Below the pieces are notes generated by a model. That model did no database searches, was not told where the DNA came from, and saw only the letters and a list, made by a program, of their open reading frames with translations. From the IMG/VR virus record IMGVR_UViG_2563366930_000002, positions 1 to 41,011 of that record: a stretch of DNA of 41,011 nucleotides; one strand, 5' to 3'. This DNA comes from a virus (lineage: Duplodnaviria > Heunggongvirae > Uroviricota > Caudoviricetes). Shown here one piece after another: positions 13,099 through 18,359 of the stretch (the first letter of the stretch is position 1; each line of letters starts with the position of its first letter). Position numbers and translations under genes: made by a program.

Positions 13099-14094
13099 GT
13101 GACCGTGAGAGCACTACTGACCCCTGAAATTGCCCCGCGTATGGGGATCGTATTGTTCAGGCCAGGTTCAGAGCTGATGCCCCTGTTTATGCAGGGGCGT
13201 GTCCTGCTGGAGCCAGAGCCGGAACGTTATTCATCTTTCGCCAGTGGTGCCGTTCCGGCGGCATCACAACCGCTGGCGGATGATCCTGCCGTTCGGACCG
13301 TGTTCCGCAATGAGGCAGTGATCCGTCGTGCTGGTGGCGTGGAATGTCTTGAAAGCTGGTTACTTCGTGAAAAGGGCTGTCAGTGGCCTCATTCTGACTG
13401 GCACAGCGAGAACATGACCACAATGCGGCACGCTCCGGGAGCAATTCGTCTGTGCTGGCACTGCGATAACCAGCTGCGTGACCAGTTCACGGAACGGCTG
13501 GAATCAATGGCAACGGATAACTGTGCCCGCTGGGTGTTGTCTGTCGTGCGTCGGGATCTCGGTTTTAATGACAGTCACGTTGTGACAATGCCGGAACTGT
13601 GCTGGTGGCTGGTTCGTAATGATCTGGCGGATGCCTTACCGGAAAGTGCAGCCCGTAAGGCACTGAGATTACCGAAGCCTGTTGTGCCATCTGTCACCCG
13701 GGAAAGTGACCTTGTGCCTTCGGTTCCTGCCACCAGCATCATCCAGGATAAAGCGAAAAAGGTGCTGGCGCTGAAAGTGGATCCGGAGTCGCCGGAGTCT
13801 TTTATGTTACGCCCAAAACGTCGCCGCTGGGTTAATGAAAAGTACACGCGCTGGGTTAAGACGCAGCCGTGTGCATGTTGTGGAAAGCCTGCTGATGATC
13901 CCCACCACCTGATAGGCCACGGTCAGGGTGGGATGGGTACAAAAGCGCATGACCTCTTTGTGTTGCCTTTGTGCAGAAAGCATCACGACGAGCTGCATGC
14001 GGATACCGTGGCATTTGAAGAGAAGTATAGCTCCCAGCTGGAGCTGATATTTCGTTTTATCGATCGTGCGCTGGCAATTGGCGTGCTGGCCTGA
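13099..14094 (+). CDS. DUF968-family phage protein (YdfU-like), GTG start
   Basis: C-terminal Cys/His cluster CACCGKPADDPHHL...CRKHHDELH; Nin-region position. Confidence 0.7.
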   Translation: MTVRALLTPEIAPRMGIVLFRPGSELMPLFMQGRVLLEPEPERYSSFASGAVPAASQPLADDPAVRTVFRNEAVIRRAGGVECLESWLLREKGCQWPHSDWHSENMTTMRHAPGAIRLCWHCDNQLRDQFTERLESMATDNCARWVLSVVRRDLGFNDSHVVTMPELCWWLVRNDLADALPESAARKALRLPKPVVPSVTRESDLVPSVPATSIIQDKAKKVLALKVDPESPESFMLRPKRRRWVNEKYTRWVKTQPCACCGKPADDPHHLIGHGQGGMGTKAHDLFVLPLCRKHHDELHADTVAFEEKYSSQLELIFRFIDRALAIGVLA

Positions 14095-14111
14095 TTTTGT
14101 GGAGAAAGTTG

Positions 14112-14456
14112 ATGCGTGATATGTATGAAGTATTGGACCGCTGGGGAGCATGGGCTGCAGCAGATAACAGTGGCGTGGACTGGCAGCCGATAGCAGCAGG
14201 CTTCAAGGGGCTTTTACCTCATGGCAAAAAGTCACGGATTCAGTGTGATGATGACGAAGGCATTATGATAGACAGTTGTGTGGCTCGGTTGAGAAGGTAT
14301 AAACCAGAGGAATATGAGCTCATCATAGCCCACTTTGTTATTGGTATCTCATTACGCACTATTGCCAAAAAGAGAAGGTGCTCTGATGGCACTATTAGGA
14401 AGGAGTTGCAAACCGCAATCGGTTTTATAGAGGGGGTTGTAAGTATACTTGTGTAA
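14112..14456 (+). CDS. Late-gene antiterminator Q (QuuD-like)
   Basis: MRDMYEVLDRWGAWAA...IAAGFKGL...CDDDEGIMIDSCVARL matches my recollection of DLP12 QuuD; GGAG Shine-Dalgarno 7 nt upstream of ATG 14112. Confidence 0.85.
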   Translation: MRDMYEVLDRWGAWAAADNSGVDWQPIAAGFKGLLPHGKKSRIQCDDDEGIMIDSCVARLRRYKPEEYELIIAHFVIGISLRTIAKKRRCSDGTIRKELQTAIGFIEGVVSILV

Positions 14457-14463
14457 AATAATA

Positions 14464-14483
14464 AAAGGCGGTAGTACCGCCTT
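14464..14483. terminator. Hairpin with flanking A/T runs; likely terminator of the minus-strand three-gene operon
   Basis: AAGGCGGTA-G-TACCGCCTT perfect stem between convergent Q and the 205 aa ORF, with AATAATAAAA on the plus side. Confidence 0.5.
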
Positions 14484-15096
14484 AATGATCGAATCGTTGT
14501 ATGTTTTCATGGAATCTACAAAAGTGAATAGATATTTTGAATAGTAAAATGTAGAAACCAACTTGACTTAAAGTTATGGCTTTGCATTTATCATTCAAGA
14601 GTTTTTGTAATTCTTCCGTTGGTAATTGGTATACATCATCAAGAAAAACGATGCATTCTTCTAAGTTGTCTGATTCAGGAAGATAAAAAATATTAGTAAT
14701 TAACTGCTTCCTTATAGCATCAATTTTGCTATCTATTGAAGTCTTAGAAACTCCGTTGGAGAGAAGAATAGCTTCGAACTTAGATAAACTTACTAACGGA
14801 GCAAAGACTGCACGCATTGGCACATCACGATTATTACTTGTATCTATATCGCAACTGTTGCTTAATATAATGCCTCGTGTTTTTTTAGTCCCTTTAATTG
14901 AATATACTGTAAGCTCCTTAAATATATCTCCCTGAAGTGCAGCATTTTTCAGATCATCATGATAATTGCTAAGGTAGTAGTTAGTGTTTTCAGGGAAATC
15001 TCTAAGTGCATTTATTAGTCCTTCTTTTTGAGGAGCTGTTAAATAATATGGAATTTGATCTTTGAATTTCTCGATATCAAAAATGTTATTACTCAT
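14482..15096 (-). CDS. Hypothetical protein C, 204 aa, third gene of the AT-rich operon; no recognised domain
   Basis: Long ORF in about 30% GC DNA; ATG 4 nt after the upstream stop; soluble, Asp/Asn/Lys-rich. Confidence 0.7.
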   Translation of the reverse strand: MSNNIFDIEKFKDQIPYYLTAPQKEGLINALRDFPENTNYYLSNYHDDLKNAALQGDIFKELTVYSIKGTKKTRGIILSNSCDIDTSNNRDVPMRAVFAPLVSLSKFEAILLSNGVSKTSIDSKIDAIRKQLITNIFYLPESDNLEECIVFLDDVYQLPTEELQKLLNDKCKAITLSQVGFYILLFKISIHFCRFHENIQRFDH

Positions 15097-15099
15097 CAC

Positions 15100-15444
15100 T
15101 TAATCCAAGTATAAATCCCACAGTGAAGCATGAACGACTTTATTTATTTCACTGCCTAAAGACACCTGGTTTGTTGATAATTTTTCATAAAAGTTTGTCA
15201 TCGAGACTGCAAGTCTTTGATCAACTGAGATTGTGCTCCCTGCTTTATATGTTTGTGTGATGGAATGAACTGAATCGGTAGTTGAAGACTTATACTCCAA
15301 AGCGTGATTTTTGACGATTAAACTTTGTTGAGGACCATGCTGTTGATTTTGGGCAATGTCTGTTAATGCAGTTATATGCAGACTATATAAAACCAAAGTT
15401 AATACTTGAAGTTGAGCTCGATAAACATGATGAGACGGATACAT
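15100..15444 (-). CDS. Hypothetical protein B, 114 aa, middle gene; N-terminal hydrophobic segment
   Basis: ORF 15 nt downstream of gene A's stop and abutting gene C; hydrophobic LQVLTLVLYSLHITAL. Confidence 0.55.
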   Translation of the reverse strand: MYPSHHVYRAQLQVLTLVLYSLHITALTDIAQNQQHGPQQSLIVKNHALEYKSSTTDSVHSITQTYKAGSTISVDQRLAVSMTNFYEKLSTNQVSLGSEINKVVHASLWDLYLD

Positions 15445-15459
15445 ATCATACCACCATTT

Positions 15460-16209
15460 CTATTTGTAGGATGGTTCTAGTTCTTGAATTGTTGACTCTT
15501 TAAGGCAACTAAAGAAAGCTAATTTATTACAGGCGTGAAGATCATCAAGAATTTTTTTGGGTTCGTTTTTAAACTTATCTATTTCATCAGTATTAGTGAT
15601 TTGCCTAATGCTGTCTATGTCTAGGATTAGTCCTTTTTTATTAAATTCTCCATTATCTGACATGACTAAAGCATGAGATAATATTTGAATTATATTTAGA
15701 AATGCGCCTTCATTTTTATCGATTCTGATATTGATCGGATAATTAGACATAGACTCGCCAGCCATATTTAAGCTGACGTTTAGCTTATCAAATAAATTAG
15801 AATCGTCTTCTTTTGGGAAAAAATCTACATACTTTAATGAGTAGCGGATGATGTTGTCATTTAAATTTAATTTGTTAAGCTCATTTAATACATGAATGAT
15901 TTTTTCTCTAAAATGACTCCACCCTTGATATTTGGTGCTGGTGGATACAACAACACCATGGTCACTTAGTCCAATATAGTACCCTTCGATTTCGAGGCGA
16001 CTGACAACTGCGTAATGTAATTGTTCATCTCCCTCACGAACATTTTTAGGTATTTGACTGGGTGGTAAACTAATTACTGGTTTTGTACAACCTAGAGCGT
16101 GAAAAAGAAACCCTGGAACTATTTCCGATATTTGTGTTTCTTTAGAAAAACGCATTTCGAAAGCAGCTTCGATTACTGGTTGTTTTGATAGAGATGTTGG
16201 AATGAGCAT
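15460..16209 (-). CDS. Hypothetical protein A, 249 aa, first gene; no recognised domain
   Basis: Long AT-rich ORF; no transmembrane segment or catalytic motif identifiable by eye. Confidence 0.7.
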   Translation of the reverse strand: MLIPTSLSKQPVIEAAFEMRFSKETQISEIVPGFLFHALGCTKPVISLPPSQIPKNVREGDEQLHYAVVSRLEIEGYYIGLSDHGVVVSTSTKYQGWSHFREKIIHVLNELNKLNLNDNIIRYSLKYVDFFPKEDDSNLFDKLNVSLNMAGESMSNYPINIRIDKNEGAFLNIIQILSHALVMSDNGEFNKKGLILDIDSIRQITNTDEIDKFKNEPKKILDDLHACNKLAFFSCLKESTIQELEPSYK

Positions 16210-16437
16210 TTAAAACCCATAGTATGTTTTATGAGCTGATTGGATTTTGAGCATAGCTACCGCACGAATCTTCGAGGAAGATCCAAACATGTGCCTAATG
16301 TCGCATCATGCTCAAGGCGGCATAAATTTTGTTTACTGAGTATAAGATTAACAACCATTAACTTCCATCAAAAATGCTAACGCGTACGCAAAAACTATTG
16401 TATCGTGTTAAGAGTGGTCACTTCGCCACACAGCTTA

Positions 16438-16466
16438 AACCCGCCGTCGAGCGGGTTTGTCGTTTC
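16438..16466 (+). terminator. tR'-like intrinsic terminator upstream of the lysis genes
   Basis: AAACCCGCC-GTCGA-GCGGGTTT stem followed by GTCGTTTCT, about 150 nt before the holin. Confidence 0.5.
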
Positions 16467-16609
16467 TGGACCCGGCTATTTGTTGAGCCTGGTCTATACC
16501 GCAGTTATCCATTGGCTCGGCCTCTTTTACGTTTCCGCTTCTGATTTGCGGTACATGATGTTCCCTCAATTTGCACCTCCTGTATTGGCGAGGTGAGAGA
16601 TAACTACAA

Positions 16610-16936
16610 ATGCCTCATAACCCAAATACCTGGCTGGAGTTGGTCCAGAGCTGGTGGCGTGGAGACACACCGCTGGGCGCAGTGATTATGTCGATTGTTA
16701 TGGCTGGTTTACGTATTGCCTATTTTGGCGGTGGTGGCGGCTGGAAGCGAAAAACACTCGAAATTCTACTCTGTGGCGCTCTGACGCTGACTTTTGCATC
16801 CGCTCTTGAGTATGTCGGATGGCCTAAATCACTATCTGTTGCCATTGGTGGTGGGGTGGGGCTGATCGGTGTCGATGCTATTCGTGGGGCTGCAATGCGA
16901 GTAATCGGTAACAAATTTGGTGGCTCTAAGGAGTAA
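16610..16936 (+). CDS. Holin (lambda S-like, class I)
   Basis: 108 aa with three hydrophobic segments and a charged C-terminus; immediately precedes the endolysin. Confidence 0.75.
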   Translation: MPHNPNTWLELVQSWWRGDTPLGAVIMSIVMAGLRIAYFGGGGGWKRKTLEILLCGALTLTFASALEYVGWPKSLSVAIGGGVGLIGVDAIRGAAMRVIGNKFGGSKE

Positions 16937-17416: not shown

Positions 17417-17792
17417 GCTGGTTATCGCTGCTTTCTTCGTTACTGTCATTGGTTCTTTCATCTGGTCAGCCAACCACTACTACAGCAAATATCAGTACGA
17501 AAAGAAACGTGCTGATGAGGCTGAACGAAATGCTGGATCAGCAACAGCCATTACCAATAACGTCCTGCAATCACTGCAAATCGTCAATACAGTACTGGAG
17601 GCTAACCAGCATGCAAAACAGCAGATCGCACTGGAGTCACAAAGAACCCAGGAAGATATCAAAATGGCCGTTGCGGATGATGATTGTGCTTCACGTCTTG
17701 TGCCTGCTGCCGCTGCTGAGCGGTTGCGGAAGTATGCGGACAGTTTACGTGAACACTCCGACGGTACCACTGCCAGCCAGCCTGACGGCTGA
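17400..17792 (+). CDS. Rz-like inner-membrane spanin
   Basis: N-terminal transmembrane helix (LVIAAFFVTVIGSFIW) then coiled-coil periplasmic domain; overlaps the endolysin stop. Confidence 0.8.
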   Translation: MKLSYKLVIAAFFVTVIGSFIWSANHYYSKYQYEKKRADEAERNAGSATAITNNVLQSLQIVNTVLEANQHAKQQIALESQRTQEDIKMAVADDDCASRLVPAAAAERLRKYADSLREHSDGTTASQPDG

Positions 17793-17946
17793 AACCCCTC
17801 AGCCTGATTTACCTGATCATTTTACGTGGGGCTCGAGCTTAGATCTGAATGCCGCCTTGTTGTCTGCATTGGCGCAGTGTAATACCGATAAAGCTGACAT
17901 CAGAAGGATTGAAGTTGAGCGTGGTCACATCATGCAAAAAAAATGA
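17677..17946 (+). CDS. Rz1-like outer-membrane lipoprotein spanin, overlapping the 3' end of Rz in another frame
   Basis: Signal peptide with lipobox LLSGC and proline-rich mature region; starts inside Rz and extends beyond it. Confidence 0.7.
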   Translation: MMIVLHVLCLLPLLSGCGSMRTVYVNTPTVPLPASLTAETPQPDLPDHFTWGSSLDLNAALLSALAQCNTDKADIRRIEVERGHIMQKK

Positions 17947-18038
17947 TGTTCACTTTATTTTGTTCCTTGATTTGATATGTGATGACCCAATAGATACAAA
18001 GCACCTGATTTGGGTGATTTTTTTGAAGGACTATACAC

Positions 18039-18359
18039 ATGAAAGACGGCATTTATTTTGTTGTGTTCAGAAGCGGTCATAATGATGTTGGCAATGGCAC
18101 GGTCGTTGTGAAGGATAATGCGGTTAATGGTGGTGATTTTGGGTTTACCTATCAGGGGCGTGTACAAGATGGGGTATTGAAACTTCATGTATCCCGCCAT
18201 AACCCTTCAGCACAAAACGTTATTGCAGGCCTTAACGATTATGTGATGGATCTCTCTGTGAGAGATATTGGGGATGGTTATTACCTTGAAGGTGGAATTG
18301 CTGGTGTTCCTGGTGCGACTCTGTCTGTACAGGCGAAATTTATCGGCAATTTGATTTAA
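18039..18359 (+). CDS. Hypothetical protein, 106 aa
   Basis: ORF with protein-like composition after the lysis genes, followed by a terminator. Confidence 0.5.
   Translation: MKDGIYFVVFRSGHNDVGNGTVVVKDNAVNGGDFGFTYQGRVQDGVLKLHVSRHNPSAQNVIAGLNDYVMDLSVRDIGDGYYLEGGIAGVPGATLSVQAKFIGNLI

Follow-up and report, generated by a model that had tools for sequence, protein, structure and literature searches.

What is the role of a compact, low-GC block of three genes that runs against its neighbours between the antiterminator gene Q and the lysis genes of a lambdoid prophage of E. coli? The question is raised by a 41,011-nt stretch of viral DNA (Duplodnaviria; Heunggongvirae; Uroviricota; Caudoviricetes; IMG/VR record IMGVR_UViG_2563366930_000002, positions 1 to 41,011), referred to hereafter as the window. 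The cassette comprises three open reading frames (ORFs), which we designate A, B and C:

15460-16209, minus strand: gene A, 249 aa
15100-15444, minus strand: gene B, 114 aa
14482-15096, minus strand: gene C, 204 aa from its ATG (205 aa with the GTG at 15099)

Comparison with related loci, together with structure predictions, makes a new toxin-based module, serving anti-phage defence or addiction, the most likely identity of the cassette; a toxin-antitoxin (TA) or defence role is the reading that fits it best. It is apparently an undescribed three-gene module, with a novel set of partners and interchangeable effectors. The anatomy of the locus, the linkage of A, B and C, the folds, the mobility, the location in a hotspot and the swapping of effectors are established directly by the comparisons below. 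We consider that a toxin-based defence or abortive-infection function has somewhat better than an even chance of being correct.

A, B and C form an obligate unit

Searches with a profile of protein C retrieved 80 loci from species-representative genomes and 50 from viral contigs. Gene A lies upstream of C, on the same strand and separated from it by 235-475 nt, in all of the 146 loci with enough upstream sequence; the three exceptions each have less than 310 nt of it. In essentially all loci the gap between A and C is occupied by a B-type ORF with the characteristic C-terminal motif, and in 130 of the 146 the profiles of A, B and C are each covered to 80% or more (with an improved profile, B is found in 145). 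A-B-C is an obligate unit. Its hosts span Alpha-, Beta- and Gammaproteobacteria, Desulfobacterota, Bacteroidota, Ignavibacteriota, Verrucomicrobiota, Campylobacterota and Chlorobi, and the gene order is kept both in the orthologues of Yersinia, Klebsiella and Pantoea and in distant versions from Allochromatium, Trinickia, Candidatus Symbiobacter and a second Klebsiella lineage. The genes are tightly coupled: the ORF coordinates agree with the three packed minus-strand frames of 249, 114 and 204 aa described in the initial annotation, with 15 nt between A and B and 3 nt between B and C, and in other loci the coupling extends to 8-nt overlaps. Full-length matches to PHROGs (E-values of 4.5e-132, 2.3e-58 and 4.6e-97 for A, B and C, respectively), along with the conservation of the trio across phyla, argue that these are real genes and not chance ORFs.

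An exhaustive profile search of 1.84 billion representative proteins recovered about 1,000 clusters of the C family, nearly all of them single-domain proteins of about 200 aa. Within E. coli, the cassette is present at 99% identity or more in 92 of 5,426 complete genomes (~1.7%), including avian pathogenic (APEC) and extraintestinal pathogenic (ExPEC) strains, and all three ORFs are intact in the window and in these 92 genomes.

The three proteins evolve at very different rates. Median identity to the proteins of the window is 38% for C, 28% for A and 14% for B, and C is better conserved than A in every one of 68 distant modules; this ranking (C > A >> B) corresponds to a pattern of conserved effector and variable sensor. 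Clearly decayed copies are few: C is frameshifted in four of them, with A and B intact, and A in one, and no locus was found in which an intact C stands beside a broken B. Small as these numbers are, the pattern of decay fits the notion of C as the dangerous part of the module.

Protein C is predicted to possess a toxin-like fold

An alignment of C was built from 95 relatives, and the AlphaFold2 model of the protein is confident (pLDDT 87.2, pTM 0.82). Two independent methods applied to this model assign C to the MazF/Kid/CcdB fold; on the predicted structure, C is thus a protein with an SH3-like barrel of the CcdB/MazF type. The domain spans residues ~55-192, carries a two-helix insertion (residues 104-129), is accompanied by N-terminal helices and is followed by a conserved Cys/His-rich C-terminal tail, KLSIHFCRFHEN.

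At the sequence level, C matched nothing in Pfam at E≤1, including PemK_toxin (PF02452) and CcdB (PF01845), and no MazF was among its matches to profiles of PDB proteins at E≤10. Direct comparison with hhalign yielded probabilities of 0.1% against one PemK sequence and 0.44% against a three-sequence MazF profile. With probabilities below 1%, C was rejected as a sequence-level homologue of MazF, and motif likenesses noticed by eye (GD-I..., R/K-G-I-I-L-S and F-A-P) are without statistical support. In the alignment, taken by itself and with no residue-level superposition, a conserved Lys or Arg precedes invariant G75, where MazF has R29-P30, and no conserved Ser or Thr follows invariant P100. 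From the modelled fold, we propose that C is the toxic effector.

The third gene can be exchanged for a different effector

Further evidence on the nature of C comes from a search for loci with A-type genes, which used an alignment of eight A sequences. Most relatives of A are followed by B and C, and three loci differ:

L185:1-1792: A relative, B-like small protein, Fic/DOC-family protein
L150:6001-7815, Comamonas prophage: A relative, B-like small protein, Fic/DOC-family protein
L180:3989-5707, P2-like contig, beside the portal gene: A relative, then two unrelated proteins of 174 and 150 aa

The Fic/DOC proteins of L185 and L150 score 26.6 and 24.2 bits, respectively, on PF02661 (cutoff 24), share the motif HPYANGNGH[MI]SR and have 39% sequence identity with one another; neither is related to C. 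The B-like proteins of the same two loci retain the hydrophobic N-terminus and linker of B and end in another C-terminal motif, L.DFW..L..G..FN. A is therefore the constant component, and a change of the third gene is accompanied by a change at the C-terminus of the small protein. The occurrence of a Fic/Doc-family protein in place of C makes the third position look like a toxin slot, and suggests that the sister modules apply a shared control logic to a classical toxin.

The same observation bears on whether C is toxic at all. Its barrel might instead bind nucleic acid or protein in a trio devoted to regulation, modification or host fitness; in a variant of this explanation, A would possibly be an enzyme built on a guanido-kinase or glutamine-synthetase-like scaffold. 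We regard a non-toxic role as quite unlikely, given that a Fic/Doc-family protein replaces C in the sister modules, that C is preferentially broken in decayed copies and that the surroundings of the trio are rich in TA and mobile-element genes (see below).

Protein B combines a hydrophobic N-terminus with an acidic, conserved tail

B corresponds to PHROG 5728 and contains no domain recognised by Pfam, NCBIfam or PADLOC. In the alignments its conservation is confined to an acidic, aromatic stretch of ~40 residues at the C-terminal end (the final 40 aa carry a median net charge of -5.4), which follows the consensus ...LG.E.E.V...LWDLYLD or LG.EFE.VL.ENLWDLY; the Bacteroidota version is DLDPEFSKTVDENFWDLI. 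At the other end, the single hydrophobic segment noted in the initial annotation is present at residues ~12-30; a hydrophobic 15-mer starts near residue 11, with a mean Kyte-Doolittle value of 1.78. The two ends are connected by a hypervariable linker rich in Ser, Thr and Asn, and no lipobox was found in B. The canonical layout of a type II antitoxin, an N-terminal AbrB/SpoVT or ribbon-helix-helix (RHH) domain followed by a toxin-binding tail, does not describe B, in which only the acidic tail is antitoxin-like. By analogy, we propose that B is an effector-specific neutraliser or adaptor.

The N-terminus of B also lends itself to a different explanation, namely that B is membrane-anchored or exported and acts in envelope-level superinfection exclusion, where it might detect or prevent the injection of DNA; A and C would be its partners or regulators in the cytoplasm. 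A conserved hydrophobic stretch of 12-17 residues followed by a linker rich in Ser, Thr, Asn and Pro does resemble a signal peptide or tether, and prophage cargo near lysis genes often encodes exclusion proteins. The segment is nevertheless short for a transmembrane helix (mean Kyte-Doolittle values of 0.9-1.8 over 19 residues), is seldom preceded by a positively charged N-region, and no lipobox accompanies it; A and C carry no export signals, and the conserved part of B co-varies with the type of cytoplasmic effector. We consider this explanation very improbable.

Protein A belongs to the TIGR04255 family

The initial annotation had found no recognisable domain in any of the three proteins, a view that does not hold: besides the fold of C and the assignment of all three to PHROGs, A matches the TIGR04255 hidden Markov model (HMM) of NCBIfam with 96.4 bits (curated cutoff 30; E 2.3e-27). 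The match covers residues 7-244 of 249 and profile positions 2-251 of 252, and a RefSeq protein identical to A is labelled 'TIGR04255 family protein'. Judged by its sequence, A is a full-length member of this family. Its alignment was built from 91 relatives, and the AlphaFold2 model (pLDDT 93.5, pTM 0.90) confidently predicts a two-lobed, antiparallel-sheet scaffold resembling TATA-binding protein (TBP) and guanido kinases. From its position and conservation, we propose that A is the sensor, adaptor or regulator, the constant front component of the module.

Functional clues beyond these are scarce. Pfam and PADLOC v2 produced no match to A, B or C at E≤1, sequence searches of the PDB no relative of any of them, and the three PHROGs are all of unknown function. 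The suggestion that no described system corresponds to the trio was borne out by PADLOC v2 and by a literature search (subscription-only papers lay outside it), which found no paper on TIGR04255, the proteins or PHROGs of the trio, or the defence candidate PDC-M53 discussed below. In DefensePredictor, the label 'TIGR04255 family protein' on a neighbouring gene is one of those that shift the model in favour of defence (PMC13092281, Table S3); in the tables of that study, the accessions of the trio are absent and no tested unit is named TIGR04255.

A conserved leader precedes gene A

The region upstream of A contains three conserved elements:

16266-16284, minus strand: leader hairpin with a 7-bp stem, GGATCTT-CCTCG-AAGATTC (alignment and RNAalifold)
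16256-16266, minus strand: invariant 11-mer CGTGCGGTAGC, exact across enterobacterial leaders
16339-16344, minus strand: TATACT, a -10-like hexamer and candidate cassette promoter element (from conservation only)

In an alignment of nine enterobacterial leaders, 93.4% of the cells of the hairpin are paired and four of the seven pairs are changed on both sides, whereas slid controls drop to 23-52% pairing. The stem sequence thus varies among species in a compensatory fashion; a G-U pair at one fixed position allows pairing on the sense strand only. RNAalifold returns the identical helix, and no Rfam family matches the element. The 11-mer lies directly 3' of the hairpin, ~50-80 nt upstream of the start codon of A; it is exact in the E. 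coli, Yersinia, Klebsiella, Pantoea and IMG/VR lineage-1 modules and missing from distant ones. Besides the window, the leader element occurs in nine loci (L002, L004, L007, L103, L108 and L114-L117), and both hairpin and 11-mer are kept even in the non-phage copy of Pantoea. Their sequence features suggest that they may constitute an autoregulatory operator or RNA element.

TATACT is found ~125 nt upstream of the start codon of A, and the leaders of E. coli, Klebsiella, Pantoea and Yersinia all retain it. A search for a matching -35 element turned up nothing convincing, and a promoter scan (consensus, at the threshold of the tool) reported neither TATACT nor any other minus-strand site upstream of A; by inference from sequence, the hexamer is a candidate promoter element of the cassette. 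The result of the scan, like the few frameshifted copies elsewhere, would be in keeping with dead cargo, a fossil insertion that is no longer expressed. To this explanation we give hardly any credence, since the ORFs are intact in the window and in the 92 nearly identical E. coli copies, the architecture and the ~1,000 C-family clusters extend across phyla, and the leader hairpin has undergone compensatory changes.

Next to these elements, a palindromic block, TGCTAACGCGTACGCA within TTTTTGCGTACGCGTTAG (window 16375-16390), is common to the Q-slot loci of E. coli, Yersinia and Klebsiella and absent from the Pantoea copy; it probably belongs to the late-promoter/qut side of the phage and not to the cassette.

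The cassette is a separate unit in the Q-to-lysis interval

The boundaries of the cassette are set by the following features:

14097-14456, plus strand: antiterminator gene Q (PF06530, 9.8e-45), left boundary of the slot
14457-16369, strand not assigned: low-GC cargo block filling the slot between Q and pR'/tR' (composition and resumed phage homology)
14465-14483, minus strand: terminator-like hairpin closing the cassette (terminator scan and direct reading of the sequence)
16436-16474, plus strand: two overlapping tR'-like terminators of the phage late strand (terminator scan; region conserved in other lambdoid phages)
16610-16936: holin gene (PF05106)

Identification of Q (annotated as such also by RefSeq in a near-identical locus, L001), the holin gene and the tR'-like terminators places the cassette where the initial annotation had put it. 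To its left lie genes for KilA-N and DUF968 proteins and Q; to its right, the two terminators are followed by holin, endolysin, Rz-like, HNH and TerS genes. From the position of the terminators, the cassette precedes the late leader and is not part of the late operon. The hairpin at its end, likewise anticipated, is terminator-like on the minus strand (14483-14465): an 8-bp stem with five G-C pairs and a 3-nt loop, AAGGCGGTACTACCGCCTT, overlaps the stop codon of C and is followed by the T-rich tail TTATTATTTT. The cassette is a separate, convergently oriented opposite-strand unit with its own terminator.

GC content is 0.339 across 14457-16400 (0.336, 0.357 and 0.317 for A, B and C; 0.25-0.28 at their third codon positions), against 0.527 in the left flank, 0.477 in the right flank and 0.499 in the whole window. 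The contrast with higher-GC flanks reported initially is therefore real, although the figures of ~30% for the cassette and ~50% for the right flank should read 33.9% and ~48%. Together with the separate terminator, this composition agrees with the description of a compact opposite-strand unit of foreign, low-GC cargo in the Q-to-lysis interval. Similarity to lambdoid phages (SfII, SfIV, lambda-like) restarts at ~16369-16383, and megablast matches to phages begin at query positions 2070-2106, corresponding to window 16369-16405. A clean empty site was not found: an artificial Q/pR' junction had no contiguous match in the 5,426 E. coli genomes, and the boundaries consequently rest on composition and on the point where phage homology resumes. 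That the block was inserted is supported by its composition and by allelic replacement (see below), and not by an indel.

Three observations concern the flanks. The DUF968 protein encoded upstream of Q (13099-14094) has a weak match to the HNHc_6 nuclease domain (27.3 bits; cutoff 26.6). Downstream of the Rz-like gene, a 106-aa ORF (18039-18359, plus strand) in a dip of GC content (0.40-0.44 at ~17750-18200) gives a sub-threshold match (24.1 bits; cutoff 26.8) to the GrlR family, a regulator of type III secretion systems (T3SS). According to the coordinates, the segment between the Rz and HNH genes is ~183 nt shorter in the window than in the near-identical prophage of APEC E123, in which the counterpart of this ORF encodes 184 aa (L001:9734-10288).

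The trio is mobile cargo and shares its slot with other cassettes

In E. coli, Yersinia and Klebsiella, the trio resides in the Q-to-lysis slot of different lambdoid phages with differing holins and terminases, and in other Klebsiella prophages it occupies a second slot, between replication and nin genes. In Dobby, a P2-like Pseudomonas phage, its neighbour is the portal gene, which places it at the site of the defence hotspot that Rousset et al. reported for P2 (PMC9122126); in phage VW-6S it immediately follows the cI repressor gene, in the same orientation. Further sites are a region of Pantoea that resembles an integrative and conjugative element (ICE) and contains UmuDC, ArdC and ImmA-like genes, and, in Trinickia, the interval between two integrases. 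The trio adjoins MazEF in Allochromatium and HicAB in Comamonas; in Symbiobacter, the island around it also contains ParE, BrnT and Wadjet genes and group II introns. When the three ORFs closest to the trio on either side were tallied in 25 diverse genomes (147 ORFs), integrases were the commonest neighbours (7 of 147), followed by type I restriction-modification methylases, resolvases, Toprim primases, TniB and many unrelated genes. The trio is mobile cargo with modest direct adjacency to defence genes. On whether homologues occupy the same slot or known defence islands, the picture is mixed: the slot recurs in E. coli, Yersinia and Klebsiella; TA, Wadjet and restriction-modification genes are neighbours in some loci, and most flanking ORFs are integrases or unrelated genes.

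The Q-to-S gap had been named initially as a cargo site, and sibling E. coli prophages with the same DUF968-Q/holin backbone confirm this, as they carry at least five other cassettes on the opposite strand in the identical interval:

L154:2836-4324, DEF2: PADLOC candidate PDC-M53 (its B, 1.7e-54; its A, 1.1e-30)
L155:1253-3411, NT1W22: trio of 211, 140 and 365 aa
L156:2449-3452, 11PC: pair of 247 and 87 aa
L157:3992-6383, STEC2018-553: 404-aa protein and NA37 nucleoid-associated protein
L158:4010-5471, R4: pair of 182 and 308 aa

The Q-holin slot is thus an exchange hotspot with at least six different opposite-strand cassettes. One of the five alternatives is a recognised defence candidate (PDC-M53), to which a weak partial match to PDC-S54 may be added, and most of the five have no Pfam or PADLOC match; the argument from the hotspot to defence is suggestive.

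Mobility of this kind is also what would be expected of pure addiction, that is, of a tripartite TA system that stabilises its mobile element by post-segregational killing and does not act against other phages. Addiction was the role in which MazEF, Kid/Kis, CcdAB and Phd-Doc first became known, and a third gene with a MazF-type fold or of the Fic/Doc family, a small upstream partner and constant residence on mobile elements or variable islands would all suit such a function. On the other side, validated defence systems occur in the hotspots of P2-like phages in which the trio is found (PMC9122126), the defence candidate PDC-M53 alternates with it in one and the same slot, and its design of three components with a variable A is more elaborate than addiction needs. 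We judge addiction as the sole function to be unlikely, if still a serious contender; the addiction and defence roles are compatible with each other.

Other variable positions were noticed in these prophages. In one Klebsiella prophage (L007:4674-5654), an insertion sequence (IS) element with a DDE_Tnp_1/DUF772 transposase separates the trio from the holin gene; it is missing from the otherwise identical L008. Klebsiella prophages have a second variable position near DinI and LexA-like genes, maybe another cargo slot, which contains a 595-aa DUF7380 + EMARD_N protein in L007, L008 and L010 (10737-12524) and a DUF5677 protein in L009 (11037-12068). In the NT1W22 sibling prophage (L155:5026-5319), the serum-survival gene iss is located on the opposite strand just after the Rz gene, at yet another cargo position.

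Comparison with known systems

By analogy, the cassette resembles a TA system of the MazEF/CcdAB type with an added component, and lies outside those families. The predicted fold of C is shared with the toxins of MazEF, Kis-Kid (PemIK) and CcdAB, with no detectable sequence homology; these toxins are about half the size of C, which adds the N-terminal helices, the two-helix insertion and the Cys/His-rich tail. Where the antitoxins of such systems have an AbrB or RHH domain, B has a hydrophobic N-terminus and a disordered linker, and the obligatory third protein, A, sets the trio further apart.

Toxin-antitoxin-chaperone (TAC) systems are tripartite and include HigB-HigA with a SecB-like chaperone and MqsRAC. 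They resemble the trio in having three co-transcribed genes and a third protein that may control the stability or activity of the antitoxin, and the aggregation-prone hydrophobic segment of B could conceivably act as a chaperone-addiction sequence; A is not SecB-like, and membership in this group was rejected. Type III TA systems (ToxIN, AbiQ, CptIN), the toxins of which have a related fold, were rejected as well, there being no repeat RNA array upstream and no Rfam match. Phd-Doc is bipartite, with a Phd/YefM antitoxin, and the SoFic defence system consists of a single gene. The modules of L150 and L185 differ in that they keep a TIGR04255 protein and a B-like protein, with Fic/DOC replacing C; the cassette of the window itself has no Fic domain.

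Among defence systems, type II Gabija (GajB + GajC) demonstrates that a MazF-like domain with a helical insertion can serve as a validated defence effector (PMC13069673). The partner of GajC is the UvrD-family helicase GajB, and its insertion is described as five helices, compared with two in C, a difference taken from the description of GajC. No helicase is present in any trio locus examined, and membership in type II Gabija was rejected on that ground. Rst_3HP (hp + hp + hp; P2 hotspot, plasmid pFR109), validated against phage P1 (PMC9122126), likewise consists of three genes without recognisable domains in a hotspot of temperate phages, and the trio of Dobby lies in a hotspot of the P2 type. 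Identity with Rst_3HP was rejected, as its proteins measure 333, 359 and 227 aa against 249, 114 and 204 aa in the window and the best BLASTP or profile match amounts to 22 bits over 28 aa. PDC-M53 fills the Q-holin slot of the sibling prophage in E. coli DEF2 and, like the trio, runs on the opposite strand; its two gene products (191 + 301 aa) bear no similarity to those of the trio, and it is itself only a candidate. In harbouring such alternatives, the Q-holin slot behaves like the P2 and P4 diversity hotspots.

A proposed mechanism

We envisage the cassette as a self-contained, horizontally mobile, tripartite conflict module that would be transcribed separately from the phage as prophage cargo. 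It would probably be expressed in the lysogen from a promoter near TATACT (16344-16339), transcription being predicted to start near 16330, with the leader hairpin and the 11-mer as a possible autoregulatory site, and the tight coupling of the genes would yield an A-B-C complex. In this complex, C would be a toxin kept inactive by the acidic, aromatic C-terminal helix of B, much as by the tails of MazE, Kis and CcdA, and the N-terminal segment and linker of B would tether it to A or possibly to the membrane. A would sense an infection cue or stabilise B, thereby controlling whether B silences C. Infection by another phage, or loss of the element, would displace or degrade B, and the freed C would arrest or kill the cell; the outcome would be abortive-infection defence, with addiction as a by-product.

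Several points weigh against this scheme. In the models, the likeness of C to MazF is a matter of fold only, and any equivalents of the catalytic Arg and Thr are putative. Gene length by itself gives a chance of ~0.06 that at least four of five decay events would strike C. B is without the DNA-binding domain that its sequence would be expected to reveal in a canonical antitoxin such as MazE, Kis or CcdA, and its N-terminus could be a signal peptide or membrane anchor; in that event the tail of B would be outside the cytoplasm and therefore unable to neutralise C. The role of A is read from position and conservation and from nothing else. Only two to three restriction-modification genes appear in the neighbour census of 25 genomes, four of the five alternative slot cassettes are without recognised identity, and no family in PADLOC-DB v2.0.0 (2023; 5,027 HMMs) matched A, B or C at E≤1. 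Lastly, four elements of the scheme are ones that we infer: that C is toxic, that B neutralises it, that A is a sensor and that the module confers defence.

Implications for TIGR04255 proteins and prophage hotspots

A broader generalisation, which we advance tentatively and would sooner expect to fail than to hold, is that TIGR04255 proteins are modular immune controllers that span phyla: A, with an effector-matched tether B, would restrain swappable toxins until a phage cue arrives, and the Q-holin slot would be a defence hotspot. The toxins so controlled would so far include MazF/CcdB-fold and Fic/Doc proteins and at least one unknown pair. If this were true, a function would be provided for TIGR04255, a curated yet uncharacterised family that extends from E. 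coli to Bacteroidota, and classical toxin folds (MazF/CcdB-like and Fic/Doc) would prove to be subject to a new three-component control by partners unlike any known antitoxin. In a common family of prophages of E. coli, Klebsiella and Yersinia, the stretch from Q to the late promoter would then be a diversity hotspot offering a list of candidates for defence discovery. Being present in ~1.7% of complete E. coli genomes, APEC and ExPEC strains among them, the cassette could therefore affect host range in phage therapy.

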